A program made the translations under genes and the position numbers. Shown here in pieces: positions 2,617 through 64,000 of a DNA stretch of 64,000 nucleotides. A model generated the notes under the pieces. It searched no databases. It saw nothing but the letters and a program-made list of their open reading frames with translations, and had not been told where the DNA came from. The DNA is from Escherichia coli. GTDB lineage: Bacteria; Pseudomonadota; Gammaproteobacteria; Enterobacterales; Enterobacteriaceae. The DNA lies in assembly GCF_009931435.1 (NCBI RefSeq), contig NZ_CP043414.1; one strand, written 5' to 3'. How positions within the stretch are numbered: the stretch's first letter is position 1; the number at the start of each line of letters is the position of its first letter.

Positions 2617-3188
2617 CACAATCTCCAGCAATACATCCAAATAAAACTAAGATTGCATAAACAGCAACGCATTAAATGCCATTCCGGTTACTGTTCATCG
2701 CATATAAAAATTCAAAAATTTTGCATAGCATTGACAACCACATATCTGAGTATGTAGTTCAGAGGGTAATAAAATAGCAAGTTACTACTGAAAACTTATT
2801 TTAAGTTAACACTATTAACTTTATCATTACATTCCACCCAGTCTCGAATACATGCGCATTATATGTATCCAGGAACTCAAATCAACTCAAAATATAAACA
2901 AAAGCAGGAGGAATACATTTAATATACAGCCGGTAAAAGTGGTAACTCTTATTAGGTATCAAAATATAAGAATCGTCTTATTAATAAATATATAACTCTA
3001 TAGGACTGAATCCATTCAGCTAATGCAAAATAAAATCGTTAATTAATAAAATATAAAATCATGAAGTGATACAAGAGGAATTGCAGGATATGACATGACA
3101 ATCATATATAATATATGCATAATTTTTTACAGCGAGTCAATGATTTCCGCGCCATATGCAGACATGGCGCGGTTTTATGCAAAAATAA

Positions 3189-5222
3189 TCACACGTCCGG
3201 GAACATTACGCTATTACCCGGCGCTTCACGATGGAGATGGATAAAGTTTAGGTGCCGCTCGTACTGATCGAGAATATCGGTGATCACCTGCTCTTTGCTG
3301 TAGTCCATCAGGTCGTTGCCCTGGCTGCCTTCTAACAGGAAGGTTTCCAGCCGGTAGTAGGTCGATTTACCGCTACGTGCGCGGTAGGTAAAGCCCGGCA
3401 CCGAATATTGCTGCGGCCAAATCTGATAGACAAAGTTTTGCTCTTCGCCCATATGCACCAACAAATCCAGATGCCCCAACTGTTGTCCCTCTTCCGGCGG
3501 CAGGCTTTTTAGCTCCACGTACGCGCCGCGCAACCGCAGCTCCTGCGCCACTTCTTCCATTGCCGGGTAACAGACCGTCTCCATCATCTGTTTAGTGTAA
3601 CGCGTGCCCGGATAATTCATCAGGCGCGAGAGACGTTTTTTCCAGCTCAGGCGATCCTGAAGCCCCAGCGGTCGCGGCGCGGTATCACGGTTGGCACTTT
3701 CACGGCGGTAATCTTCTACCTTCAGAGATTTATACAATCCCGCCATCACGAAGAAAATCACAAAGCTGAACGGCAGCCCCATGATTACCGTGGTGTTTTG
3801 CAGCGCGGATATCCCGTTGGTCATCAGCATGCCAAGCGTCAGCAGACCAATGGCAACCGACCAGAAGACACGCAGCCAGCCCGGCGCGTCGCTGTTGATA
3901 TCTTTAAGCTGCGAGGTGAAATTCCCCAGCACCAGCGCCCCGGAATCCGCCGAAGTTACGTAGAACAGCAAGCCAGTGATGGTGGCAACCGAGGCGCTAA
4001 AGGTAAATGCCGGATATTGCGCCAGCAGGCTGTAGAAGCCGCGCTCCGGATGGACCATCGCTTCCTCGGCAAATGCCGCGCCGCCGTGGATGATTTCATA
4101 CAGCGCGCTATTGCCGAATACCGAGAGCCATAACAGCGTGAAGGTAAACGGAATAATCAACGTGCCCAGCACGAACTGGCGAATGGTACGCCCGCGCGAG
4201 ATACGCGCCAGGAACAGGCCGACAAACGGCGACCATGCCACCCACCATGCCCAGAAGAAGAGCGTCCAGTTATTCATCCACTCAACCGGACGGTCGAAGG
4301 CAAAACTGTTGAGCGTCATTCCCATAAAGCGATTCACATAGTCGCCAACGTTCAGCACCAGCGCATTAAGCAGGAACGAGGTGTCGCCCATAAACAGCAC
4401 GAACAGGATCAACCCCAGCGCCAGCGCAACGTTGAGTTCCGATAACACGCGAATGCCCTTATCGACACCGGAGGTGACAGAGATCGTTGCGATGATCACC
4501 GACAAGGCGATCAGTGCCGCTTTCGCCGCCATCGAATCGGGAATATCAAACAGTACGCTCAAGCCATAGTTAAGCTGCACCACGCCAATACCGAGCGTGG
4601 TCGCAATACCGAAAATGGTGCCGATTACCGCCGCGATATCTACCGTGTGACCAATCGGCCCGTTGATCCGTTTGCCGAAAATAGGATACAGCGCCGAGCG
4701 GATCGTGAGCGGTAAATCATAACGATAGCTAAAGTATCCAAGCGCCATGCCCATCAGCGCATACATCGACCAGCCGGTTAAGCCGTAGTGAAACAGCGTC
4801 CAGACCATCGCCTGACGCGCGGCCTCAATTGTCTGTCCCGCGCCTTCCGGCGGCTGCATATACTGCGTGACCGGCTCAGCAACGGAGAAGAACATCAGAT
4901 CAATACCAATCCCGGCAGCGAACAGCATCGCCGCCCAGCTCAGTAGACTGAATTCCGGTTTGGATTGTTCAGGCCCGAGCTTCACCGAACCAAAACGCGA
5001 ACAAGCGATGCAGACCACAAAGACAATATAGAGCGTTGCCGCCAGCAGATAGTACCAACCGAAGGTTTTAGAAACCCAGTCCAGCGTGCGGCCAATCCAC
5101 AGGGCCGAGAAGTCGCGAAACAGGATCGTTGTCAGGGAAAACAACAAAATCAGTCCGGCGGAGGTGTAAAACACCACCGGATTGATTTTGTCCTTTTCCC
5201 TGCTGTGCGAAAGGTCTGTCAT
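3189..5222 (-). CDS. betT: choline transporter BetT (BCCT family)
   Basis: 677-aa ORF, polytopic membrane protein with BCCT-like sequence; divergent from betIBA as in E. coli. Confidence 0.95.
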   Translation of the reverse strand: MTDLSHSREKDKINPVVFYTSAGLILLFSLTTILFRDFSALWIGRTLDWVSKTFGWYYLLAATLYIVFVVCIACSRFGSVKLGPEQSKPEFSLLSWAAMLFAAGIGIDLMFFSVAEPVTQYMQPPEGAGQTIEAARQAMVWTLFHYGLTGWSMYALMGMALGYFSYRYDLPLTIRSALYPIFGKRINGPIGHTVDIAAVIGTIFGIATTLGIGVVQLNYGLSVLFDIPDSMAAKAALIALSVIIATISVTSGVDKGIRVLSELNVALALGLILFVLFMGDTSFLLNALVLNVGDYVNRFMGMTLNSFAFDRPVEWMNNWTLFFWAWWVAWSPFVGLFLARISRGRTIRQFVLGTLIIPFTFTLLWLSVFGNSALYEIIHGGAAFAEEAMVHPERGFYSLLAQYPAFTFSASVATITGLLFYVTSADSGALVLGNFTSQLKDINSDAPGWLRVFWSVAIGLLTLGMLMTNGISALQNTTVIMGLPFSFVIFFVMAGLYKSLKVEDYRRESANRDTAPRPLGLQDRLSWKKRLSRLMNYPGTRYTKQMMETVCYPAMEEVAQELRLRGAYVELKSLPPEEGQQLGHLDLLVHMGEEQNFVYQIWPQQYSVPGFTYRARSGKSTYYRLETFLLEGSQGNDLMDYSKEQVITDILDQYERHLNFIHLHREAPGNSVMFPDV

Positions 5223-5948: not shown

Positions 5949-7424
5949 GTGATGTCCCGAATGGCAGAACAGCAGCTTTATATACATGGTGGTTATACCT
6001 CCGCCACCAGCGGTCGCACCTTCGAGACCATTAACCCGGCCAACGGTAACGTGCTGGCGACCGTGCAGGCCGCCGGGCGTGAGGATGTCGATCGCGCCGT
6101 GAAGAGCGCCCAGCAGGGGCAAAAAATCTGGGCGGCGATGACCGCCATGGAACGCTCGCGCATTCTGCGTCGGGCCGTTGATATTCTGCGCGAACGCAAT
6201 GACGAACTCGCTAAACTGGAAACCCTCGACACCGGGAAGGCGTATTCAGAAACCTCAACCGTCGATATCGTTACCGGCGCGGACGTACTGGAGTACTACG
6301 CCGGGCTGATCCCGGCGCTGGAAGGCAGCCAGATCCCGCTACGCGAGACGTCGTTTGTTTATACCCGCAGTGAACCGCTGGGCGTGGTCGCCGGAATTGG
6401 CGCATGGAACTACCCGATTCAGATTGCTTTGTGGAAATCCGCTCCGGCACTGGCCGCAGGCAACGCGATGATATTCAAACCGAGCGAAGTTACCCCGCTT
6501 ACCGCGTTAAAGCTGGCTGAAATCTACAGCGAAGCGGGCCTGCCGGACGGCGTATTTAACGTGTTGCCGGGCGTAGGTGCGGAAACCGGGCAGTATCTGA
6601 CCGAGCATCCGGGCATCGCCAAAGTGTCGTTTACCGGCGGCGTCGCCAGCGGCAAAAAGGTGATGGCTAACGCGGCGGCCTCTTCCCTGAAAGAGGTGAC
6701 CATGGAGCTGGGCGGTAAATCGCCGCTGATCGTTTTCGACGATGCAGACCTCGATCTCGCCGCCGATATCGCCATGATGGCGAACTTCTTTAGCTCCGGT
6801 CAGGTGTGTACCAATGGCACCCGCGTCTTCGTTCCGGCGAAATGCAAAGCCGCGTTTGAGCAGAAAATACTGGCGCGCGTTGAACGCATTCGCGCGGGCG
6901 ACGTTTTCGATCCGCAAACCAACTTTGGCCCGCTGGTCAGCTTCCCGCATCGCGATAACGTGCTGCGCTATATCGCCAAAGGTAAAGAGGAAGGCGCACG
7001 CGTGCTCTGCGGCGGCGATGTGCTGAAGGGTGATGGCTTCGATAACGGCGCATGGGTTGCACCGACCGTGTTCACCGATTGCCGCGACGAAATGACTATC
7101 GTGCGCGAAGAGATCTTCGGCCCGGTGATGTCGCTCCTCACGTATGAGTCTGAAGACGAAGTGATTCGCCGCGCCAATGATACCGACTACGGTCTGGCGG
7201 CGGGTATCGTCACGGCGGATCTGAACCGCGCGCATCGCGTCATTCATCAGCTGGAAGCCGGCATTTGCTGGATCAACACCTGGGGAGAATCCCCGGCGGA
7301 GATGCCCGTTGGCGGTTACAAACACTCCGGCATTGGCCGCGAGAACGGCGTGATGACGCTCCAGAGTTATACCCAGGTGAAGTCCATCCAGGTTGAGATG
7401 GCTAAATTCCAGTCCATATTCTAA
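5949..7424 (+). CDS. betB: betaine aldehyde dehydrogenase BetB
   Basis: 491-aa aldehyde dehydrogenase ORF immediately after betI. Confidence 0.96.
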
Positions 7425-18880: not shown

Positions 18881-21800
18881 TTATTTCATCGCCTCCTCGC
18901 CCGTTGCCGTATTGGCATCCACCGCGGTAATGGTCACCGTCACTGGCTTCATTTCGTACCCGCCATAGGTCAGGGCGTTAAATGTGAACGTATAGACACC
19001 AGGCTTGCTGGTACTAAATGTACGCGTGATTTTTCCGCTCACGAAATGGTCATTTTTCGACGGCAGGAACTGATAATCCTTCTCCGTCACCCCTTCCGGC
19101 GTCTGAATGTCGACCCACATATTCCCGCCAACGGGGTTATTTGCCGACATCAGGGTCACCTCCAGCTTCGCAGTCGATTTCCCATCCGCCACCAGCGAAG
19201 GCACATTAGATGATGCGGTGAGCTGCGCGTTTTTATCATCCGCGACGAATTTAGCTTCGGCGGTTTTCGTTGATACCTGACCGTTGTTCTGACTCACTTG
19301 CGCCGTGAGTGTATATGTCGCCGCAACAGTCGTGGTGGCGGTGAAAATAGCCTGCCCTTGCTCATTCGTTGTCGCAGTGCCATTCGGTTCCAGGTTTAAC
19401 GAAGCCGGGCTGGCGGTCAGCGTCACTTCGCTATCTTTCACCAAATTCTTATTGGCATCAGTCACCGTAACTTTATACGTTTGTTTGGCTTTGCCGTCCG
19501 CCAGTGCATAGTTGCCAATCACCTCAATACTGGAGACGGTTGCGGTAGCCTTATCGGCTACAAACGTTATAGTCTGCGTATTCGAAGGCTGGCTATTCCC
19601 TGCCGATGCCGTGATCTCATACGTTCCGGCAGTCACTGAAACCACCTGCAACTCTGCTTTCCCCTCATCGTTGGCTTTCACCCAGACATTATCGCCAGTA
19701 AGCGGCTTGACACCCCGGGGCAGATTAAATGTCACCAGAGTTCCTGGAACAGGGTTACCGTTTTTATCCTCAACGGTCGCCGTCAGCGTAAAGGCATCTT
19801 TGCCGTTTGCCACTTTTTGAACGGCGGTGTCTACCTGCAGGTTTGCCTGACCGGTGCTGGCATCCGCGTTGAATTTCACCGTGACCGTCTTCTGAGAGTT
19901 TTTCACCGCGGCCGCGATTTCAAGTTCCCCTGCAACGGTTGATATCAACTCAATATCCGCTTTACCTGCCGCATTGGTTGTTACTGTATTCCCCGTCTTG
20001 CTAGTCACACCCTGCGGTAAAGTCAGCGTAACTTCTTGCCCCTGCAACGGGTTACCATAGCTGTCCACGACGGTCAGGGTTACCTGGTTAGCAGACTGTC
20101 CATTTGCCAGTTGGTTATTCACCTTCACCGCCATATCACTGATCACTGCCCGGGAAGCGTCGCCTGCAACATTCAGCACCAATGGCTGAGCAACGGCATT
20201 TTGGCCGTTCACGCGTGGCATGACAGACAACTGACCTGCAGCCGATCCCAGCGTTAAGGTCGCCACGTAGACCCCATTACCTTTCTCTGTCCAGTTACCT
20301 GCTGAAGGACGCTCACTCCCCGTGCTGGCGGCACCGCTAAACACGGGTGCATCGAGTTTCAGGTTACTAACAGGGTTGCCATACGCATCCTTCACGGTGA
20401 AGGTAAGTTCCGTCGTCGTTTTAACCGTTGGAGTCTTATTGTCCGCAACAAGCGTAGAGTTCGCTGATGACATCTCCCCGGCGATGACCGTCAACTGCGC
20501 GGCTTCGGTGGCTGCTGGCTGGCCGTTGAAGAGCGGCATGACACGAAGTTCGCCCGTCTTTCCGCCTGTGGTCAACGTAGCAACATAGGAACCGTCACCT
20601 TTTTCGGTCCAACTGGAAATAGTCGCCCCTTCAGAGGCGGTCCCCGTCAAACTTGCCGACAACGAAAGACCACTGATAGCGTTGCCATGCGCATCTTTCG
20701 CCACCAGCGTCACGGTTGTGCTTTCGCCTGCTTTTACGCGATCTGCGGCTACAGACACTGTCGACTGGCCTGAAGATAACGCATCAGCCACCACGGTTAC
20801 TTTTGCCGCGTTTGCTGCCGCATCCTGTCCATTTAGCTTCGGCATAACTTCTAATTCACCCGCCGTAGAGCCGAGAGTAATCTGCGCAGTCCACGTCCCA
20901 TCACCATTATTTGTCCAGCCAGATGCCGTAGAACCAGCAGCTGCTGCGCCCGATAATGACGGTGCATCCGGATTGAGGCCTGTTACAGGGTTGTCATTGG
21001 CATCTTTTGCCGTCCAGATTGCCGTAAGCGTACCGCCGACCACCGGTTTATCAGGATTCAGGGTGATGGACGAGTGTGCTGCATCAAGCGGCCCGGCAAC
21101 GAACTTCAGCGTTTGTTGTAATGTGCCCAGCTGATACTGCTCGCTGAAGGCACGCACAACAACGTTTCCGGCACGGGTCGAAGAAACCGTGGCGCTGTAA
21201 ACCCCTGGTTTTATTTCCGAAATGGCACCAACGGTTACACCATTAGTGTCTTGCGGAACAAGTCGCAGGCGGCTGGCTTCTCCCGTCACCGGATTACCCT
21301 CGGAGTCCACCGCTGTCAGTGTCAGCGTGTAGGCTTGCTGACCATCAGCAACCACGTCACCTGACGGCTCGTTAGCGCTCAGGGTGGAGTTTGCCACATC
21401 CATCATCGTGGCCCGCAGTTCTGCAGTGACGGTTTTGCTCATGCCATCAACGCTAACAGTAATCGTTGCCTCACCTGACTGCGTTCCGGTCGTAAAGACA
21501 GACTGGTACACCCCTGCTTCAGTTTCGGTGAACTCACCCAGTGTGGGTTTTGCCTGTGATTTAGTGGCCTTCAGGGTACGAGTCACAATATTTCCAGCCG
21601 GTTTGAAGGATAGTTCAGTCTTGATCTGATCTTTCATGCCCTTGACTGGCTGGCCCTCTGCGTCGCGCAGAGACAGCACCAGCGGCTTTTGCTCATTACC
21701 GTTAGCAAGCATTTGAATACGGCTCTGACCGTCAAGCGTTAACGCCGTACGATCGGCGCTCATACCAGCTCCGCTAATAACCACTTCTGTCTGCACACGT

Positions 21801-50897: not shown

Positions 50898-51024
50898 ATG
50901 TCTGCACCTGCACTGCCTGATGTCAGAACAGTATTTTGAGAAATTGCCAGGGTTACAATGGCACAAATACGGCACAGGAGGAAAACGTGGTGTAATTGAA
51001 TGTGAGGTAACTTATTGATTTAAA

Positions 51025-51100
51025 TGGTGCCGATAATAGGAGTCGAACCTACGACCTTCGCATTACGAATGCGCTGCTCTACCAACTGAGCTATATCGGC
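51025..51100 (-). tRNA. thrW: tRNA-Thr (anticodon CGU)
   Basis: Reverse complement reads GCCGATATAGCTCAGTTGGTAGAGCAGCGCATTCGTAATGCGAAGGTCGTAGGTTCGACTCCTATTATCGGCACCA, a 76-nt cloverleaf with encoded CCA. Confidence 0.95.
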
Positions 51101-51214
51101 CCTGAAAGGACATGTTCACGAGCGTGAATCACGGTGGACAAGGTTAAAACTAACCGGGCGATGCGTCAATGGCCTTGTGAATCAAATGGCTACTTTTGCA
51201 TCACCCGGTTTTAT

Positions 51215-52468
51215 TTATGCACGAATGGTGTAATCACCAATGCCGATCCACTTGTAGGTGGTCAGAGCTTCCAGCCCCATTGGGCCGCGCGCGTGGAGTT
51301 TTTGTGTGCTTACCGCAACTTCCGCACCCAGACCAAACTGGCCGCCGTCGGTAAACCGCGTAGAGGCGTTAACGTAAACAGCGGAGGAATCCACTTCGTT
51401 GACAAAACGCTGGGCATTACGCATATCGCGGGTCAGGATCGCATCGGAGTGTTGCGTACCGTGTTCACGAATATGGGCGATGGCATCGTCAAGATCGCTG
51501 ACGATTTTGACGTTCAAGTCTAATGACAGGAACTCATCGTCATACTCTTCGGCTTTAACAGCCACCACCTTCGCGGGGCCTGCCTGCAACTGCGCCAGCG
51601 CAGTTGCGTCAGCGTGTAATGTCACGCCGCTTTCCGCCATTTGCTTGCTTAATGCGGGCAGGAAGCTATCTGCGATGTTTTTATTTACCAGCAACGTTTC
51701 TACCGTATTACACGTGCTCGGGCGCTGAGTTTTCGCGTTGACAATCACTTTCAATGCTTCAGCGATCTCTGCACTTTCATCAACGTAAATATGGCATACG
51801 CCTATACCACCTGTGATTACCGGAATCGTCGACTGCTCGCGGCACAGTTTATGCAACCCAGCCCCGCCGCGTGGGATCAGCATGTCGATGTATTTATCCA
51901 TACGCAGCAGTTCACTGACCAGCGCACGGTCAGGATTATCAATCGCCTGCACGGCACCCGCCGGTAAACCGCAGGATTTCAGGGCGTCCTGAATCACCGC
52001 CACCGTTGCAGCGTTAGTGCGACAGGTTTCTTTGCCGCCACGCAGAATCACTGCATTACCGGTTTTCAGGCACAGCGAAGCGACATCAACCGTCACGTTC
52101 GGGCGCGCTTCATAAATCACGCCAATCACCCCCAGCGGCACGCGACGGCGTTCCAGGCGCAGGCCACTGTCCAGCACGCCACCATCAATCACCTGCCCCA
52201 CCGGATCGGCGAGGTTACACACCTGGCGCACATCATCGGCAATGCTTTTCAGCCGTGCGGGCGTCAGTGCCAGGCGGTCAAGCATCGCTTCGCTAAGGCC
52301 ATTGGCACGCGCGTCAGCAACATCCTGGGCGTTAGCATTGAGGATGCTTTCGCTTTGTGCTTCCAGTTCATCGGCGATTTTTTCCAGCACGCGATTTTTT
52401 TCGCGACTGGAGAGTTGCGCTAAATTATACGAGGCTTGCTTCGCGGCAATGCCCATTTGTTCCAGCAT
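51215..52468 (-). CDS. proA: gamma-glutamyl phosphate reductase
   Basis: 417-aa ORF; proBA operon. Confidence 0.96.
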
Positions 52469-52478
52469 CGGCTGCTCC

Positions 52479-53582
52479 TTAACGGGTAATCATATCATCA
52501 CGGTGAACGGCAACCGGGCCGTATTCATATCCCAGTATTGCATCAATTTCTTGCGAGTGGTGTCCGGCAATACGGCGTAATGCATCGCTGTTGTAACGAC
52601 TGACGCCGTGGGCGATATCGCGACCTTCGAGGTTGCAAATGCGAATGACTTCACCACGCGAGAAGTTGCCGGTTACGCTTTTAATGCCTTTCGGCAACAG
52701 GGAGCTGCCGCGTTCAAGAATGGCGGCGGTTGCCCCTTCATCTACCGTGATTTCACCCGCAGGTGGCGCACCGAAAATCCAACGTTTGCGGTTTTCAAGC
52801 GGAGTCGCCTGGGCATGGAACAGCGTACCGACGGAAATACCTTCCATCACATCACCAATGACACCCGGCTTACTGCCCGCGGCAATAATGGTGTCGATAC
52901 CCGCACGGCAAGCCACGTCAGCGGCCTGCAATTTAGTGCTCATGCCGCCGGTTCCAAGACCTGAAACGCTGTCACCGGCAATCGCGCGCAGTGCGTCATC
53001 AATGCCGTACACATCTTTAATCAGTTCTGCCTGCGGATTGCTACGCGGGTCAGCGGTATACAAACCTTTTTGATCGGTCAGCAACAACAGTTTATCGGCA
53101 CCTGCCAGAATCGCCGCCAGCGCCGAAAGGTTATCGTTATCGCCGACTTTAATCTCTGCAGTAGCGACAGCATCGTTCTCATTAATTACCGGGACAATGT
53201 TGTTATCGAGCAGCGCACGAAGGGTATCCCGCGCGTTAAGGAAGCGTTCACGGTCTTCCATATCAGCACGAGTTAGCAGCATCTGCCCGACGTGAATGCC
53301 ATAAATCGAAAACAGCTGTTCCCACAGTTGAATCAGTCGACTCTGCCCTACCGCCGCCAGAAGTTGTTTCGAGGCGATAGTCGCTGGCAGTTCCGGGTAA
53401 CCCAGGTGCTCACGTCCGGCGGCAATCGCCCCCGACGTCACAATTACAATCCGATGCCCGGCGGCATGTAGCTGCGCGCACTGGCGAACAAGTTCAACGA
53501 TATGGGCACGGTTCAGGCGGCGCGATCCGCCTGTTAGCACACTGGTGCCGAGTTTTACCACCAGCGTCTGGCTGTCACTCAT
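52479..53582 (-). CDS. proB: glutamate 5-kinase
   Basis: Track ORF 52479..53669; start at [19 protein letters not shown] gives 367 aa. Confidence 0.96.
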
Positions 53583-53770
53583 GATTCTCTGCCATTCAAT
53601 TTTAGGGAAAATGATATCAAACGAACGTTTTAGCAGGACTGTCGCCGGTTGCCAACCATCTGCAAGCAAAGCATGGCGTTTTGTTGCGCGGGATCAGCAA
53701 GCGTAGCGGCAGTTGTTTACGCTTTTATTACAGATTTAATAAATTACCACATTTTAAGAATATCATTAAT

Positions 53771-53788
53771 CTGTAATATATCTTTAAC
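53771..53788 (+). promoter_or_regulatory. Pho box of the phoE promoter
   Basis: CTGTAATATATCTTTAAC matches the PhoB-box pattern about 80-100 bp upstream of the phoE start. Confidence 0.5.
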
Positions 53789-53869
53789 AATCTCAGGTTA
53801 AAAACTTTCCTGTTTTCAACGGGGCTCTCCCGCTGAATATTCGCGCGTTAATTAAAATCAGGAATGAAA

Positions 53870-54925
53870 ATGAAAAAGAGCACTCTGGCATTAGTGGTGA
53901 TGGGCATTGTGGCATCGGCATCCGTACAGGCCGCAGAAATATATAACAAAGACGGTAATAAACTGGATATCTATGGCAAAGTTAAAGCCATGCATTATAT
54001 GAGCGATAATGACAGTAAAGATGGCGACCAAAGTTATATCCGTTTTGGTTTTAAAGGCGAAACACAAATTAACGATCAACTGACCGGTTATGGTCGCTGG
54101 GAAGCAGAGTTTGCCGGAAATAAAGCAGAGAGTGATACTGCTCAGCAAAAAACGCGTCTTGCCTTTGCCGGGTTGAAATATAAAGATTTGGGTTCTTTCG
54201 ACTATGGTCGTAACCTGGGGGCGCTGTATGACGTGGAAGCATGGACCGATATGTTCCCGGAATTCGGCGGCGATTCCTCCGCGCAGACAGACAACTTTAT
54301 GACCAAACGCGCCAGCAGTCTGGCAACGTATCGGAACACCGACTTCTTCGGCGTTATCGATGGTCTGAACTTAACCCTGCAATATCAAGGAAAAAACGAA
54401 AACCGCGACGTTAAAAAGCAAAACGGTGATGGCTTCGGCACGTCATTGACATATGACTTTGGCGGCAGCGATTTTGCCATTAGTGGGGCCTATACCAACT
54501 CCGATCGCACCAACGAGCAGAACCTGCAAAGCCGTGGCACGGGCAAGCGTGCAGAAGCATGGGCAACAGGCCTGAAATACGATGCCAATAATATTTACCT
54601 GGCAACTTTCTATTCTGAAACGCGTAAAATGACGCCAATCTCTGGTGGTTTTGCCAATAAGACGCAGAACTTTGAAGCAGTCGCTCAATACCAATTCGAC
54701 TTTGGCCTGCGTCCATCGCTGGGTTATGTCTTATCGAAAGGGAAAGATATTGAGGGCATCGGTGATGAGGATCTGGTCAATTATATTGATGTCGGTGCTA
54801 CATATTATTTCAACAAAAATATGTCGGCCTTTGTTGATTATAAAATCAACCAACTGGACAGCGATAACAAATTAAATATTAATAATGATGATATTGTCGC
54901 GGTTGGGATGACCTATCAGTTTTAA
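53870..54925 (+). CDS. phoE: phosphate-starvation-inducible porin PhoE
   Basis: Start at [21 protein letters not shown]; C-terminal ...VAVGMTYQF. Confidence 0.95.
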
Positions 54926-54932
54926 TGGAGAT

Positions 54933-54955
54933 TGCCGGATGCGGCGCATCCGGCA
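54933..54955. repeat. REP-like palindromic unit
   Basis: TGCCGGATGCGGCGCATCCGGCA between convergent phoE and crl. Confidence 0.45.
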
Positions 54956-54963
54956 CTTTTCAC

Positions 54964-55422
<459 letters not shown>

Positions 55423-56667
55423 TTAACACAATCGTTTTTCGATCCAGCTCGTGATTTCCTGAAGACCTTTGTCAAAATTCCGATACACCGGATTAAATGG
55501 AATCTCTAACAATTTACCATCAGCAGATGATGAGGTGATTAAGCGTGAGTCCTCTTCCGGGCTGAACGGATCGTTCTTCCAGTAGCCTGATAACATTGGC
55601 GTCGGGCAGCGACGGCCCAGCAATCCTTGCACTTTTAATGAATAACGATTCAGTTCCACACGCAACGCTTCATCGGAAGCATCATGCATCCCCAAACGAC
55701 TCGCCAGAACGTCAAGATACATTTCCGGCACCTGTTGCTGGCACTTAAAATCACTCAACAGGGTATGAACTACCGGACCAAGACAAGCAACCGCTTTCAG
55801 ACGCGGCGATTCAAGATATGCCAGACGCACAGCAACGTTAGCGCCAAAACGGAAACCAAAGGCCGCGACACGGGTGTGATCCACCCACGGGACGTTAGGC
55901 AGCGCCTTTAAGACGTGCTGATGCAACAGGCTGGAGTCCTGGGTGAGCTTCCATTTTGAAGAAAAGCCCACCGACGGCATATCAATAGTCAGCATCGCAA
56001 TGCCGCGCGGGGCAAAATAACGTTCATACAGACTGTAATAATCCGTCTGCATCGCATCCAGACCACCACACATTAATACCGTCGGGAACGGGCCATCGCC
56101 TTTCGGCATATGCAAAAAGCCGGTGATGGGCGCACCGCCTGGTACGGTAAACTCCATCTGCCGCATCGTGCCCGGCAGACGTTGGGCGGCCTCTTCATAG
56201 GCACGGTTTGACAAAGCCTGCGCTTGCTCGGCCAGGTCATCCCCTTTCAGATGAGGATAGGCGGCAATGTTGTACAACGTGGCCGCATGCAGCCAGTGAC
56301 GACCACTGAGTTGTGGATCTTCTTCCGCACAAGCTTTTTGTTGCCACACCATCGCCTGGGTGGCCCATTCATAAATCCAGTTGCCGCCGCGGTAGCCAAT
56401 CACCGTATCGTATAAATCATCGTCGGTACGTTCAGCATCGCTCATCACAATACGCGCCTGAACGTCGAGGATTTCACGTGGGTCAATGCCGCGCCAGATC
56501 CACATCAGACGGTTTATCATGCGATACCAGTGGGGGATGGTTTTACCATCAAGGGCCGACTGCACAGGCGGTTGTGCGCCGTGATTAAAGCGGCGGACTA
56601 GCGTCGAGGTTTCAGGATGTTTAAAGCGGGGTTTGAACAGGGTTTCGCTCAGGTTTGCCTGTGTCAT
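55423..56667 (-). CDS. frsA: esterase FrsA
   Basis: 414-aa ORF. Confidence 0.93.
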
Positions 56668-56758
56668 GGATGCAGCCTCCAGAATACTTACTGGAAACTA
56701 TTGTAACCTGCCTGAAGTTAAAAAGAACAACGCCCGGCAGTGCCAGGCGTTGAAAAGA

Positions 56759-57217
56759 TTAGCGACCGGAGATTGGCGGGACGAATACGACGCCCATATC
56801 CCACGGCTGTTCAATCCAGGTATCTTGTGGGATATCAACAACATAATCATCAACCAGCGGACGACCTGCCGGTTTAGCGAAGATGGTGACAAAGTGCGCT
56901 TTTGGATACATTTCACGAATCGCAACCGCAGTACCGCCGGTATCCACCAGATCATCAATAACGATGAAGCCTTCGCCATCGCCTTCTGCGCGTTTCAGCA
57001 CTTTAAGCTCGCGCTGGTTGTCGTGATCGTAGCTGGAAATACAAACGGTATCGACATGACGAATACCCAGTTCACGCGCCAGTAACGCACCCGGTACCAG
57101 ACCGCCACGGCTTACGGCAATAATGCCTTTCCATTGTTCAGAAGGCATCAGTCGGCTTGCGAGTTTACGTGCATGGATCTGCAACATGTCCCAGGTGACG
57201 ATGTATTTTTCGCTCAT
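56759..57217 (-). CDS. gpt: xanthine-guanine phosphoribosyltransferase
   Basis: 152-aa ORF. Confidence 0.96.
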
Positions 57218-57477
57218 GTGAAGTGTCCCAGCCTGTTTATCTACGGCTTAAAAAGTGTTCGAGGGGAAAATAGGTTGCGCGAGATTATAGAGATCTGACG
57301 CACTAAAAACCAGTATTTCACATGAGTCCGCGTCTTTTTACGCACAGCCTCTCCCTGACGCGGGATAAAGTGGTATTCTCAAACATATCTCGCAAGCCTG
57401 TCTTGTGTTGACAACATTTTCTGCTAACCCTGTGACCTGCAATACTGTTTTGCGGGTGATCGACAAGGAGACTTAAC

Positions 57478-58935
57478 GTGTCTGAACTGTCTCAATTATC
57501 TCCACAGCCGCTGTGGGATATTTTTGCCAAAATCTGTTCTATTCCTCACCCGTCCTATCATGAAGAGCAACTCGCTGAATACATTGTTGGTTGGGCAAAA
57601 GAGAAAGGTTTCCATGTCGAACGCGATCAGGTGGGTAATATCCTGATTCGTAAACCTGCTACCGCAGGTATGGAAAATCGTAAACCGGTCGTCTTACAGG
57701 CCCACCTCGATATGGTGCCGCAGAAAAATAACGACACCGTGCATGACTTCACTAAAGATCCTATCCAGCCTTATATTGATGGCGAATGGGTTAAAGCGCG
57801 CGGTACCACGCTGGGCGCGGATAACGGCATTGGTATGGCCTCTGCACTGGCGGTTCTGGCTGACGAAAACGTGGTTCACGGCCCGCTGGAAGTGCTGCTA
57901 ACCATGACCGAAGAAGCCGGTATGGACGGGGCGTTCGGCTTACAGAGCAACTGGTTGCAGGCTGATATTCTGATTAACACCGACTCCGAAGAAGAAGGTG
58001 AAATCTACATGGGTTGTGCTGGGGGTATCGACTTCACCTCCAACCTGCATTTAGATCGTGAAGCCGTTCCGGCTGGTTTTGAAACCTTCAAATTAACCTT
58101 AAAAGGTCTGAAAGGCGGTCACTCCGGCGGTGAAATCCACGTTGGCCTGGGTAACGCGAACAAACTGCTGGTGCGCTTCCTGGCGGGACATGCAGAAGAA
58201 CTGGACCTGCGTCTTATTGATTTCAACGGCGGCACACTGCGTAACGCCATCCCGCGTGAAGCCTTTGCGACCATCGCTGTCGCAGCTGATAAAGTCGACG
58301 CACTGAAAACGCTGGTGAATACCTATCAGGACATCCTGAAAAACGAGCTGGCAGAGAAAGAGAAAAATCTGGCCTTGTTGCTGGACTCTGTTGCGAACGA
58401 TAAAGCTGCCCTGATTGCGAAATCTCGCGATACCTTTATTCGTCTGCTGAACGCCACCCCGAACGGTGTGATCCGCAACTCCGACGTGGCAAAAGGTGTG
58501 GTTGAAACCTCCCTGAACGTCGGTGTCGTGACCATGACCGACAACAACGTAGAAATTCACTGTCTGATCCGTTCTCTGATCGACAGCGGTAAAGACTACG
58601 TGGTGAGCATGCTGGATTCGCTGGGTAAACTGGCTGGCGCGAAAACCGAAGCGAAAGGCGCATATCCTGGCTGGCAGCCGGACGCTAATTCTCCGGTGAT
58701 GCATCTGGTACGTGAAACCTATCAGCGCCTGTTCAACAAGACGCCGAACATCCAGATTATTCACGCGGGCCTGGAATGTGGTCTGTTCAAAAAACCGTAT
58801 CCGGAAATGGACATGGTTTCTATCGGGCCAACCATCACCGGTCCGCACTCTCCGGATGAGCAGGTTCACATCGAAAGCGTAGGCCATTACTGGACACTGC
58901 TGACTGAACTGCTGAAAGAAATTCCGGCGAAGTAA
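57478..58935 (+). CDS. pepD: cytosol nonspecific dipeptidase PepD
   Basis: 485-aa M20-family peptidase ORF. Confidence 0.96.
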   Translation: MSELSQLSPQPLWDIFAKICSIPHPSYHEEQLAEYIVGWAKEKGFHVERDQVGNILIRKPATAGMENRKPVVLQAHLDMVPQKNNDTVHDFTKDPIQPYIDGEWVKARGTTLGADNGIGMASALAVLADENVVHGPLEVLLTMTEEAGMDGAFGLQSNWLQADILINTDSEEEGEIYMGCAGGIDFTSNLHLDREAVPAGFETFKLTLKGLKGGHSGGEIHVGLGNANKLLVRFLAGHAEELDLRLIDFNGGTLRNAIPREAFATIAVAADKVDALKTLVNTYQDILKNELAEKEKNLALLLDSVANDKAALIAKSRDTFIRLLNATPNGVIRNSDVAKGVVETSLNVGVVTMTDNNVEIHCLIRSLIDSGKDYVVSMLDSLGKLAGAKTEAKGAYPGWQPDANSPVMHLVRETYQRLFNKTPNIQIIHAGLECGLFKKPYPEMDMVSIGPTITGPHSPDEQVHIESVGHYWTLLTELLKEIPAK

Positions 58936-58991
58936 TTTTTTGATTTGCTGCCGGATGGCGTTTGATCGTCTTCCGGCAGTTTCATCCTTTC

Positions 58992-59606
58992 TTATCCTTC
59001 GATAAAAGCCATCCCTGTAAACGTCCGTCGCGGGTTGCCACGTTCAATCTGGTGATGGAACATTCGCCGCTGCGATTTCAGCGCCGCGCTATTTTCCTGT
59101 TGCTGTTGCTCCAGCTTCCAGGCAATCAGCAATCGCGCCAGCCGTTTGTTGGCATGTTGGCTGCGCTCTGACTGAACCTTCACGCTAATCCCGGATGCCA
59201 GATGCGTGGCGCGTACCGCCGAGTCGGTTTTATTGACATGTTGACCGCCCGGCCCCGACGAACGCAGCGTCTCATAACGGATTGCATCCGATTGTTCCTG
59301 CTCATCAGCGGTAAAACGCCCAATGCCCAGAAACCAGTTTTTGCGCCCATGATGAGGCCGATACGGGCTTGGGCAAATCCACTGAATAGTGCCGCACCAA
59401 CTTTCGCTTAATGCCCATGCGTTATCGCCATCCAGAGAAATCAGCGCCGAACGCAGCGTGTCAGAGTAGCGGCCCGTTTCTGTTTCCAGCACCGTTACCG
59501 CGACGTCTTGTCGGGTAGCTTCTTTAATCAACCTGTCCAGCGCCTTTTTCACTGCGAGACAACATTCTTCCGGTCCCTGAGCTGAGGAGAGTTGCAGCAA
59601 GATCAT
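58992..59606 (-). CDS. prfH: peptide-chain release factor homolog PrfH (intact)
   Basis: 204 aa from [15 protein letters not shown]; contains GGQ motif ([12 protein letters not shown]); ATGA overlap with the rtcB2 stop. Confidence 0.9.
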
Positions 59607-60754
59607 CCTTTTTTCCCTCCACTGTTTTTGAGCGTCAGCACCGGACGCAGTCGCGCGGCAGGAATAATTAAACCGGCCTGCACCAGACATTGCACCACAC
59701 TTTCAGCCGATTTATAGGCTTGTGGCGCTTCTTCAAAGATGAGTTGTTTATCGCGACAAATTACCCGACCGCCAAGTTCAGTACGTGAGAGTTGCGTCGC
59801 CGTGTATTTCGCTGCCAGACGCCCTTTACACTCGGTGCGCCCCCATTTACGCCCTGCCCCATGCGCCAGTGAGTGAAGCGTTTTTTCGTTCGCAACAGGT
59901 TTAACCAGCCAGGAGTAATCACCGCGTGAACCGGGAATAATCACCAGACCGTTGTCATCCGGCGTAGCCCCTTTACGGTGTAACCATCCTTGTTGATCGC
60001 CGATTCGACATGCGCTAACAAAGTTATGCGCCACATCCAGAACCGAATTTCCGTTGGCCTTAACTTGTTGCATTATGCGCAAAGCGATCAGCTGGCGATT
60101 AATACGCGCAAACGCCAGCGCATCATCATGTTCCGCAATATAACTTAGCGCGTCGTCACTGCCTTCCGGCAAACCATGATGCGAAAACGAGGCAATATGC
60201 CGCTGTAAAATAGACTGCCCTAAACCACGCGAGCCGCTATGGACCAGCAGTTGCAGATGCTGCGCATCCAGACCTGACAGTGCAAACAGTTCCGCATCGA
60301 TGATTTGATCAATCTGTTGCAGTTCTGCAAAGTGGTTACCGCCACCGATAGAGCCAAGCGCGCAGCGCCACGGATGCTGTGCAAACGCTGACGGCAGGTT
60401 TTCCTCCAGCCAGCTTTCTTCAGCAACGTCATCCAGCGCAGATAATCGCTTTTCAAACTTATCGGCGTTGTATTTACGCGCGAGAATATCTGTTTGCCAT
60501 AGCGCCATACCGCAGCCGATATCATTGCCGACCAGTGCCGGGTAAAAACGGCCTACGGAGAAGAACGCTGCGCCAATCGGATAGCCGCGTCCTGGGTGTA
60601 AATCTGGCATCCCTACGACGCGTTGCATGTCGGGTAAATTTGCCGTGGTGTGTAATTGTTGGATCGCTGAACTCTCGATCCACAGGTCATCAGATGCGAT
60701 GGTAAATACCGCATCGGATAAGGGACGAATATATTTGCCCATGTACCATTCCAT
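59603..60754 (-). CDS. rtcB: RtcB-family RNA ligase (RtcB2, intact)
   Basis: 383-aa ORF; position where K-12 has the ykfJ pseudogene. Confidence 0.88.
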
Positions 60755-61059: not shown

Positions 61060-61512
61060 TTAGTGTTGCGGTTTATATCGCATATGAAAATTAGTAAACC
61101 ACGCTCCCCGGCATTCAACGCGCTGCTGCTTAACTGTCTGAAAACCATAACGTTCAAAAAAGGGTTTTGCGGTTATGCTGGCATCTACCGTAAGTTCGGA
61201 TTCAGACTTAATCAAAGGTTTTAACAAAGCGCTGGCAACCCCGCAGCGGTTGTATTTCGGATCAACAAATAACATATCGATATAATGCTCAATGCAGGTA
61301 ATAAAGCCGACCAGTTGTGTATTAATCACCGCAACCCGCACTTGTGATTTCGCGAGTTTCTCTTTCCATCGATGTTCATCAATCTGCGCCCAGGCGGCAA
61401 TTTGTTGTGGTGAATAATGCTGACTGGCGGTCATCGTAACCGCTCTAATAAAAATAGCGCATAGCTGCTGAAAATCGCCAGGCTGATAGTCTCTTATTTG
61501 TATATTATTCAT
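61060..61512 (-). CDS. yafP: GNAT-family N-acetyltransferase YafP
   Basis: 150-aa ORF immediately after dinB with a 4-nt gap/overlap. Confidence 0.85.
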
Positions 61513-62564
61513 AATCCCAGCACCAGTTGTCTTTCCATTTGCGGATCAAGCAACGTCACATGCAGCCCCACCAGTCGCACACCGCGTCCGCCCCGGCGTT
61601 CATCCCAGGTTTTACGCGCAGTGGCGATCAAGTCAGCTTTATTCAGCCGCGGCCAGACGTGTTCCTGGGTGGTTTGCTGAAAATCGTCGAACTTTAATTT
61701 CACCCCCTGGCGGGCAATCAGTAAATCAGGTTTTACCTTTGCCAGACGACGCTCCAGTTCAGGGTAAAGCCGCTCGATGATCGCTTCACATTCAGACCAG
61801 TGATGAATATCTTCCGCCATGGTGCGTTCTACACCGACGGATTTTCGCAACCTTTCGCTGTTAACGTCGCGCTCGTCAATCCCCTGACTACGCTCCCACA
61901 AAATGCGACCAAATTTGCCAAAGCGTTTAAGCAACGTCACCAGATCACACTTTTGTACATCGCCGCAGGTCCGCAGCCCCATCGCTTCCAGTTTTGCCGC
62001 CGAGACTTTGCCGACACCGGGAATTTTTGCCAGCGGTAAGGTTTGCAGAAATGCCGGGACGTCCGCCGGCGTAATCACAAACTGTCCGTTGGGTTTATTC
62101 ATATCAGAGGCGATTTTGGCGAGAAACTTGACCGGCGCAACGCCCGCAGACGCCGTCAGTTGCAGCTCGTTGAAGATCGTCTGGCGGATTTCCTGAGCGA
62201 TAAGGGTCGCAGAGCCGTGGCAATGTACGCTGTCGGTGACGTCGAGATAGGCTTCATCCAGTGACAGCGGCTCAATACGCGATGTGTAGCGAGAGAAGAT
62301 TTCGCGGATATGATTTGACGCTTCTTTGTAGGCGTCAAAGCGCCCTGGAAGCAAGGTGAGATGCGGACACAGTTTGAGCGCCATGCCGGTTGGCATTGCG
62401 CTACGCACGCCAAATTTACGCGCGGGATAATTGGCGGTGCTGATCACCCCCCGGCGTTCGCGGCTGCCGCCAATAGCAATAGGGATATCGCGCAGGGCGG
62501 GATTGTCGCGCATCTCCACCGCGGCGAAAAAGCAGTCCATATCCACATGAATGATTTTACGCAT
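61509..62564 (-). CDS. dinB: DNA polymerase IV
   Basis: 351-aa ORF beginning [26 protein letters not shown]. Confidence 0.97.
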
Positions 62565-62578
62565 TGCTCACCTCTCAA

Positions 62579-62598
62579 CACTGGTAAAGTATACAGTG
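62579..62598. promoter_or_regulatory. LexA (SOS) box of dinB
   Basis: CACTGGTAAAGTATACAGTG contains CTG-N10-CAG, 15-34 bp upstream of the dinB start. Confidence 0.7.
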
Positions 62599-62634
62599 AT
62601 TTCAGAGTTTGAGAAATGCGTAAAGATTCAGCAT

Positions 62635-63400
62635 TTAACGCGTTCGCTGCGAAAGCACCTGCTGCTTATCCAGCTTTTTCACCAGCGGCTGCACCACCTT
62701 ATCCCCATGCTGACCAAAATATTGATACAACGTATCAGACGCGCTTTTGGTGAGCACCATAATCTCAATGCGCCGGTTACCCGCACTTTGCGGATTTTTC
62801 GTGTCCAGCAGCATCTGGTCCGCCATTGCGCTCACCTGCATCACTTTATCTTCCGGCATCCCGGCCTCTTCCAGCACCCGACGAGCCGAGAGCGCACGAT
62901 CGCCCGAAAGGTTCCAGTTGTTGTAGATATTGCTTTTATAGGCCATCGCATCGGTATGCCCGGTAATAATAATTTTGTTATCGAGCGAGTCGAATACCGG
63001 CGCGAGCTCCACCAGCAGAGTTTTAAAGAACGGCATAATCTTCGCGCTGCCGCGTTCAAACATATTGCGGTTCTGGTCATCTTTAATCAGCACGCGTAAT
63101 CCCTGCGGGACAATCTCCATCTCCAGATTGGCTTCCATATGCGCATCGCGGGCGATGGTGTTGATACTGGTCGCCAGCTCGCCAAGCTCAGTGGCGGACT
63201 TCTTCTTCAGTAGCGCCGTTTTCTCGTTGACGTCGCGGGCTTTTTTCTCCGTCTCTTCCGGCACCGCCACGGTGGCAGGTTTCAGCGGATGCGTCGGGCT
63301 GATTTTATTTAACGGCGATAGCCCGCCGCCATTGAAAATCGACTGCCCGTGCAGCGCGGCGATAATGCTTTCACGCTCGGATTTACTGACGCTGTTGACA
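62635..63400 (-). pseudogene. lafU: lafU fragment (MotB-like, OmpA-type C-terminal domain; N-terminus deleted)
   Basis: Track ORF 62635..63552; the MotB/OmpA-like C-terminal domain is recognisable (IIITGHTDAMAYKS ... NRRIEIMVLTK), while the N-terminal extension is antisense to the lfhA fragment and lacks the TM anchor. Confidence 0.65.
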
Positions 63401-64000
63401 ATCAACTTTATTGTCGTCACCAAAGGGGCTGAGCGTATTTCCGAGGTTTCTGCCCGCTTTACCCTGGACGCGATGCCCGGCAAGCAAATGGCGATTGACG
63501 CCGATCTTAACGCCGGGTTGATCAACCAGGCGCAGGCGCAGACCCGCCGCAAAGATGTTGCCAGCGAGGCCGATTTCTACGGCGCGATGGACGGGGCATC
63601 GAAGTTTGTGCGCGGGGATGCCATCGCCGGGATGATGATTCTGGCGATCAACCTGATTGGCGGCGTTTGTATCGGGATCTTCAAATACAACCTGAGCGCC
63701 GATGCCGCCTTCCAGCAATATGTGCTGATGACCATCGGCGACGGCCTGGTGGCGCAGATCCCGTCCCTGCTGCTTTCCACCGCGGCGGCGATTATCGTCA
63801 CCCGCGTCAGCGACAACGGCGATATTGCCCATGACGTGCGCCACCAGTTGCTGGCAAGCCCGTCGGTGCTCTACACCGCCACCGGGATTATGTTCGTGCT
63901 GGCGGTGGTGCCGGGAATGCCGCACTTCCCGTTCCTGATGTTCAGCGCCCTGCTTGGTTTTACCGGCTGGCGAATGAGCAAACGCCCGCAGGCGGCGGAG
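63401..64000 (+). pseudogene. lfhA: lfhA fragment (FlhA-like export gate, internal portion; runs off window end)
   Basis: Plus-strand frame translates to INFIVVTKGAERISEVSARFTLDAMPGKQMAIDADLNAGLI..., matching FlhA from about residue 130 onward; no N-terminus. Confidence 0.65.

Follow-up and report, generated by a model that had tools for sequence, protein, structure and literature searches.

The window, a 64,000-nt stretch of Escherichia coli DNA, ends in two truncated genes of the lateral flagellar (Flag-2) system, lafU' and lfhA', which meet at their broken 5' ends close to dinB. The features of the locus are as follows.

61509-62564, minus strand: dinB (DNA polymerase IV), conserved, directly downstream of lafU' and anchoring the locus
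62635-63403, minus strand: lafU' remnant, the last 769 nt of the gene for the lateral-flagellar MotB-like protein
63401-63403: deletion junction, a 3-bp microhomology (ATC) at which the lafU and lfhA alignments overlap (three-way alignment with A32)
63401-64000, plus strand: lfhA' remnant, an FlhA homologue beginning at residue 131, where TM4 ends (...IILMI/INFIVVTKG, the slash marking the break)
62635-63552, minus strand: 305-aa ORF, a chimera whose 50 first codons (63403-63552) are antisense to lfhA'
63404-63552, minus strand: spurious upstream part of the 305-aa ORF, which ancestral LafU lacks

The remnants, their reading frames and their neighbours

The lafU' frame is open for 255 codons (63402-62638) and closes with a stop at 62637-62635; its first residue corresponds to residue 53 of the 307-aa protein, directly after the transmembrane helix (...FMTLW/IVNSVS). 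A Pfam search matched this segment (window 62638-63402, minus strand) to OmpA (PF00691, E 2.4e-14) and returned no match to MotB_plug (PF13677), the domain that occupies residues 19-70 of intact LafU. Together with alignment to lafU of strain A32, this bears out the original prediction of a MotB-like C-terminal fragment on the minus strand. Considered as a stator subunit, LafU' keeps the C-terminal OmpA-like peptidoglycan-binding domain and has lost the N-terminal cytoplasmic segment, the transmembrane helix and the plug, and no transmembrane segment or signal peptide was found in it even when its antisense 5' extension was included. Since the N-terminal segment and the helix are missing, LafU' would neither join a stator nor reach the periplasm.

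On the plus strand, window 63401-64000 matched FHIPEP (PF00771, E 2e-100) over profile positions 103-298 of 657. This lfhA' segment has 200 open codons and is stopped, 600 nt in, by the end of the window at 64000. In relatives the remnant runs for 1,704 nt to its natural stop (567 codons plus the stop), after which comes rayT or hicAB. The segment had been described beforehand as an FlhA-like internal fragment: that it is FlhA-like on the plus strand is confirmed by the PF00771 match and by alignment to lfhA, but it seems internal only because the window ends at 64000, the natural stop being reached in relatives. Considered as an export gate, LfhA' is without 130 N-terminal residues, including TM1-4, which leaves the FHIPEP domain incomplete. 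Neither remnant appears able to do its ancestral job, part of this being directly observed and part deduced.

The 305-aa ORF had been suspected of being partly antisense to the lfhA remnant and unfit for annotation as one protein, and its first 50 codons are indeed antisense to lfhA'. The 5' extension at 63404-63552 looks conserved because it is the reverse complement of a conserved LfhA loop. Candidate starts for LafU' are a TTG at -7 in all taxa, a GTG at -6 in Escherichia and Citrobacter and an ATG at -3 in Atlantibacter and Kluyvera; RefSeq carries a 261-aa 'LafU' CDS that begins at the GTG equivalent to 63420, six codons into the antisense part, with no pseudogene flag. For LfhA', no conserved translation start was found across the scar taxa, in which the in-frame upstream extension ranges from 16 to 153 codons. 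E. coli and A. subterranea have an ATG at -12 that Citrobacter and Atlantibacter RC6 lack, and Citrobacter lfhA' has no start within its 18 open upstream codons, yet its codons 1-24 are conserved. A weak promoter-like sigma-70 match at 63339-63366 points into lfhA'. For annotation, lafU' and lfhA' are best treated as pseudogene remnants, and the 305-aa ORF is not to be listed as a protein; arguably, the RefSeq 261-aa 'LafU' should not be called a protein either.

The lafU' remnant lies directly upstream of dinB in the same orientation, with a 70-nt spacer between them. This spacer holds a LexA-box-like CTG-N10-CAG (ctggtaaagtatacag, plus strand) at 62581-62596 and a sigma-70-like match at 62615-62588, which from their sequence are presumably the expected SOS-regulated dinB promoter. 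The other neighbours in the window are yafP, an RtcB-family gene, prfH and pepD. Here yafP directly follows dinB (window 61060-62564) with a 4-nt overlap (61509-61512) and the yafN-yafO toxin-antitoxin pair is absent, unlike in K-12-type strains, where yafN-yafO lies between dinB and yafP; among complete E. coli, the pair is likewise missing from L001, L044, L047, L049 and L050 and present in L004, L045, L046, L048 and L051. The RtcB-family RNA ligase gene (59603-60754, minus strand) and prfH (58992-59690, minus strand) look intact in the window, whereas the annotation of the K-12-type laboratory strain treats them as partial pseudogenes. The housekeeping stretch at 51000-59000 is 98.5-98.8% identical to E. 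coli chromosomes. Values of dS against K-12 are 0.33 for dinB, 0.31 for lafU' and 0.19 for lfhA' (61509-64000), and 0.12 for pepD and 0.06 for gpt (55423-58935). On these values, dinB-lafU'-lfhA' would be a deep-allele region, of the kind seen around loci under diversifying selection. Beyond lfhA or lfhA' lies either rayT, which encodes a REP-associated tyrosine transposase, or the hicAB toxin-antitoxin pair, regardless of whether the locus is scar or intact: hicAB-type neighbours occur in L043 (10976-11603) and in L049 and L050 (~4210-4400), the other loci having rayT. IS110 and IS3 fragments lie downstream of lfhA' in L001.

Extent and frequency of the deletion

Alignment to an intact Flag-2 locus had been proposed as the way to place the breakpoints and any microhomology, and it provided both. 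We used four intact E. coli references (A32, DETEC-P836, 1444 and 2013C_3963). By BLAST, window 62400-63403 corresponds to the dinB-lafU end of A32 (L002 20001-21004, 95.1% identity), lafU' itself aligning to A32 lafU at L002 20236-21004, and window 63401-64000 corresponds to A32 lfhA (L003 6950-6351, 94.7%). The intact orthologues, of 307 aa (LafU) and 697 aa (LfhA), are collinear with the fragments at 94-95% nucleotide identity. The fragments had been placed as abutting at about 63400, which is right to within 3 nt, the overlap being at 63401-63403; in Atlantibacter the bases shared at the junction are AT only. Relative to the intact loci, 155 nt (52 codons) of 924 nt are missing from lafU and 390 nt (130 codons) of 2,094 nt from lfhA, so that both terminal genes have lost their 5' ends, as had been foreseen. 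A reading of the fragments as whole genes, or as parts of a different motility or secretion system, is scarcely conceivable, since the orthologues are longer and collinear and the domain truncation is shown directly.

In all four intact loci the cluster is bounded by lafU and lfhA, both of which face outward, so that one internal deletion takes both 5' ends. The missing interval measures ~37.4 kb in A32 (record positions 1,091,950-1,129,332), and with it have gone ~40 genes, lfhB through lafT, along with the 5' ends of both terminal genes. The alignments to the four intact loci thus support the original prediction of a single internal deletion removing the cluster, and one event of ~37.4 kb with a 3-bp microhomology accounts for the junction. 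Across that junction the window aligns without gaps to L004 (K-12-type) and L001, whose junction sequence is identical, and to other scar strains.

Intact loci carry short inverted repeats at both breakpoints. In lafU the repeat reads GACGCTGT-N9-ACAGCGTC, with the break within the spacer (L002 ~20990-21020), and in lfhA a palindrome, GATGATCATC, ends at the break (L003 ~6945-6965). Conservation of the lafU repeat extends over E. coli, C. farmeri and Atlantibacter, and Kluyvera has an imperfect form of it (further loci with the breakpoint region: L052, L054, L055 ~3150-3180). These repeats are short and could be of chance origin.

The contiguous scar was found in 4086 of 5426 complete E. coli genomes; in those of the remaining complete genomes that were sampled, the scar query was split by an intact cluster. 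The complete genome nearest to the window scar is that of strain 24A16CRGN010 (97.6%). Among complete E. coli assemblies, 17 of 6,751 places matched by the scar query lie on plasmids, and these might be F-prime-like elements with the pro-lac-dinB region. Some E. coli Flag-2 loci classed as intact have frameshifts, in fliF of DETEC-P836 (L041 17551-19198) and in motA/lafT of 2013C_3963 (L043 47399-48263), which suggests that the intact-type cluster may itself often not be fully functional. An lfgC defect is reportedly present in the Flag-2 locus of strain 042.

The junction in other genera and its origin

To look for the junction elsewhere, we ran a pattern in which all wobble positions were degenerate against species-representative genomes and verified the matches by tblastn and by eye. 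The identical junction (LafU residue 53 joined to LfhA 'INFIVVTKG') occurs in E. albertii, Citrobacter sp. MGH106, Kluyvera ascorbata, three Atlantibacter species and Cedecea sulfonylureivorans, and a metagenome scan added further Kluyvera and Citrobacter-like examples (cross-genus loci L005, L007, L009, L011-L014, L019, L031 and L040). A heavily gapped metagenome match (L030) was ignored, and matches in 'Clostridiales/Collinsella' MAGs (L008, L010), which are E. coli-like, were treated as contamination. Genus-specific wobble differences begin 3 nt from the junction and dS between the remnants of different genera exceeds 1; with so many wobble differences, recent spread of one sequence is not the explanation. 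The open frame of lfhA' measures exactly 567 codons in Citrobacter, in Kluyvera and in each of the three Atlantibacter species. Truncated and full-length LafU both occur in A. subterraneus, K. ascorbata, C. farmeri, C. amalonaticus and E. coli, and A. subterraneus also has a full-length LfhA (696 aa, 99% identical; P0004; L015). The LfhA of Siccibacter turicensis is 96% identical to the Atlantibacter protein (proteins compared: P0004, P0008-P0010), which suggests that Flag-2 may recently have been transferred between these genera. In the part of De Maayer et al. (2020; PMC6993521) consulted here, Table 1 gives no intact Flag-2 locus for Atlantibacter.

We then compared dN and dS (Nei-Gojobori estimates) among scars.

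E. coli scars, lfhA': dS 0.19-0.20, dN/dS 0.04-0.07
E. coli scars, lafU': dS 0.32, dN/dS 0.04-0.05
Atlantibacter scars, lfhA': dS 0.34-0.81, dN/dS 0.02-0.03
Atlantibacter scars, lafU': dS 0.7-1.6, dN/dS 0.04-0.09

Alleles of ten complete-genome E. coli scars were set against those of the four intact loci, the window lafU' serving as an eleventh scar allele. In each of the ten genomes the two remnants have open frames, and lfhA' alleles lie ~5% apart among E. coli strains. Private polymorphisms in lfhA' number 98S:12N in scars and 37S:5N in intact alleles, scar singletons number 57S:5N in lfhA' and 30S:8N in lafU', and the interior Flag-2 genes of intact loci show the same diversity, with omega of 0.01-0.1. 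By the private S:N ratios and the interior-gene omega, the remnants show no visible excess of neutral decay. Disruptions do occur. In the E. albertii type strain lfhA' has lost 22 nt and the C-terminus of lafU' is altered, and several Escherichia metagenome contigs carry independent lfhA' deletions of 1, 1, 5 and 5 nt, in-frame deletions of 3 and 12 nt, or a broken lafU'. Sequencing error is an unlikely cause of the 5- and 22-nt losses; the pair of 1-nt deletions, in CC and GGGG runs, is less certain, and the disruption rate is uncertain at ~1/3 in metagenome contigs versus 0/10 in complete genomes. The identity of the breakpoint across genera, together with the lack of excess nonsynonymous decay, is a point that a specialist might not expect.

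One explanation for such conservation is that LfhA' (the FHIPEP loop, TM5-8 and the cytoplasmic ring domain), LafU' (the linker and OmpA-like domain) or both stayed functional after one ancient deletion and are under purifying selection. The frames open in ten of ten E. coli scars, in Citrobacter, in Kluyvera and in three Atlantibacter species point this way, as do dN/dS values of 0.02-0.09 in Atlantibacter and 0.04-0.07 in E. coli scars, at dS of up to 0.8, and the 57S:5N singletons of lfhA'. Expression evidence found for the remnants comprised only fhiA mRNA detectable by qRT-PCR in O157:H7 (PMC6863780) and the weak sigma-70-like match toward lfhA'. However, intact alleles are equally constrained, so that scar-specific selection is not needed, and a minority of Escherichia scars, the E. 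albertii type strain as well, carry independent frameshifts. LfhA' also has no conserved start even though conservation runs up to the junction, and LafU', with neither transmembrane segment nor signal, would keep its peptidoglycan-binding domain in the cytoplasm. Further against a function, several metabolic-engineering papers name mbhA, which reportedly serves there as a chromosomal integration site. On the premise that Atlantibacter has no intact Flag-2, we had taken the low dN/dS of its three scar alleles as proof of selection on the remnants, a claim that fell with the full-length A. subterraneus LfhA. Retention of the remnants by selection seems to us improbable, and we rank it as less likely than the repeated excision considered below.

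Comparison of scar with intact alleles showed that E. coli scars are not monophyletic. Reading outwards from the junction, no difference separates scar L049 from intact L043 over 441 nt of lfhA' and 77 nt of lafU'; the shared tract is 158 nt for scar L047 and intact A32, and 83 nt for scar L050 and intact L041; lfhA sites +12, +39 and +51 are polymorphic in both classes. Scar and intact alleles of A. subterranea differ at 19/1701 nt (lfhA') and 2/588 nt (lafU') and those of K. ascorbata at 8/489 nt, and in three genera same-species scar and intact alleles agree at 98-99.7% of positions as far as the breakpoint. Within the young clone ST131 the scar is found in subclade B1, and B2-B5 and clade C gained the full locus (PMC5369007; PMC4192283). 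An ancestral scar followed by gain of the full locus indicates that switching from scar to intact by recombination is recent and real. At one stage we held that the last 20-30 bp by the junction are immune to gene conversion, which would have excluded a single origin. This argument was withdrawn: recombination with a heterologous tail plausibly converts up to the border of homology, and near-junction sharing does not separate recurrent deletion from recombination.

Recurrent deletion would take the form of precise excision of the 37-kb cluster, directed by site or structure, at conserved sequences in lafU (...ATGACGCTGTGG/ATYGTNAACAGCGTC) and lfhA (...CTGATGATC/ATYAACTTYATYGT). The agent would be a recombinase, a topoisomerase or a hairpin-directed process; scars would be young and independent in each species with the junction identical, and the reciprocal circle junction would read ...CTGATGATCATC/CACAGCGTCAT.... 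If true, this would explain why an identical breakpoint is found in at least five genera beside near-identical intact alleles of the same species. It draws on the same junction with genus-specific wobble bases in Escherichia, Citrobacter, Kluyvera, Atlantibacter and Cedecea, on the 98-99.7% identity of scar and intact alleles to the breakpoint in three genera, on the lack of a nonsynonymous excess in scars and on the short inverted repeats that flank both breakpoints of intact loci. Yet the microhomology is only 2-3 bp, the repeats are short, imperfect in Kluyvera and could be chance, and a search of the annotations of intact loci gave no recombinase in or beside the cluster. RayT was considered as the recombinase and dropped, rayT being adjacent in E. 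coli and not in Atlantibacter. Moreover, the documented change in ST131 is a gain and not a loss, and homologous replacement covers the within-species data with no new mechanism. We regard recurrent excision as unlikely.

The explanation we lean towards, with confidence a little better than even, is that the junction is single and old, has come down by descent and has been swapped with intact alleles through homologous recombination; a small share of the probability goes to none of the readings weighed here. A deletion of ~37.4 kb fused lafU codon 53 with lfhA codon 131 through a 2-3-bp microhomology. This junction would have arisen once, long ago, to be passed on by descent, and the scar would persist beside intact Flag-2 alleles as a presence/absence polymorphism. 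The two remnants and the neighbouring genes would act as arms for homologous recombination that switches the state of the locus, and remnant sequence would thereby pass repeatedly through intact, selected alleles. Such passage would explain why scars look as if under purifying selection, share haplotypes near the junction with intact alleles and have only sporadic frameshifts. A single junction agrees with the low dN/dS and the haplotypes common to both classes, with the gain in ST131, and with frameshifts being sporadic and expression signals lacking. It is nonetheless demanding, since for the junction to be identical across at least five genera either the polymorphism must predate them or transfer between genera must have occurred, and de novo deletions with other junctions should also have accumulated. 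By a rough rate estimate, ordinary E. coli recombination rates would barely suffice for such low nonsynonymous decay. A single junction therefore needs unusually frequent switching, for which there is one documented case (ST131). With ten of ten scars fully open, the remnants are also better preserved than one would expect of long-dead pseudogenes.

The scar is the mark of a polymorphism in which the gene cluster for an entire organelle is present or absent, and lineages can regain that cluster, as in ST131. The shared breakpoint and the lack of excess nonsynonymous decay bear on how long such polymorphisms persist and on the possible directed loss of large clusters.

Comparison with described Flag-2 scars and with the primary flagellum

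The feature is the fhiA/mbhA (lfhA'/lafU') pseudogene pair of E. coli K-12, a Flag-2 deletion scar that has already been described; we take lfhA' (fhiA) to be b0229 and lafU' (mbhA) to be b0230 in that strain. The K-12 scar has the same genes, orientation and neighbour, dinB, and its junction is identical nucleotide for nucleotide, the K-12 and window alleles being ~93% (lafU') and ~95% (lfhA') identical with differences that are almost all synonymous. The scar description by Ren et al. (2005; J Bacteriol 187:1430) is cited in PMC6993521, PMC3032704 and PMC11420993, and as quoted in PMC3032704 it places the fhiA/mbhA (lfhA'/lafU') remnant in K-12 and B. In the sections of De Maayer et al. (2020; PMC6993521) to which we refer, truncated copies are given for 76 of 76 Flag-2-negative strains, 100 E. 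coli having been analysed, and the lfhA-lafU deletion for 531 of 4,028 Enterobacterales strains. These deletions affect the same two truncated genes as in the window; those sections give the truncation and do not report identity of the breakpoint at the nucleotide or codon level. Carter et al. (2024; PMC11420993) found the same pair in Flag-2-negative E. albertii. The fragments reported for ST131, ~1,700 bp of lfhA and 769 bp of lafU (PMC5369007), have the sizes that we measured.

The intact Flag-2 locus of E. coli, represented in the literature by strain 042, occupies the same chromosomal site, between dinB and rayT/yafL, and the remnants are the 3' parts of its terminal genes. MotB (PF13677 and PF00691) and FlhA (PF00771) of the primary flagellum have homologous domains; neither remnant is complete, MotB_plug and the transmembrane helix being absent from LafU' and FHIPEP starting at profile position 103 in LfhA'. 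The remnants are paralogues that belong to the lateral (Flag-2) system and not to flag-1.
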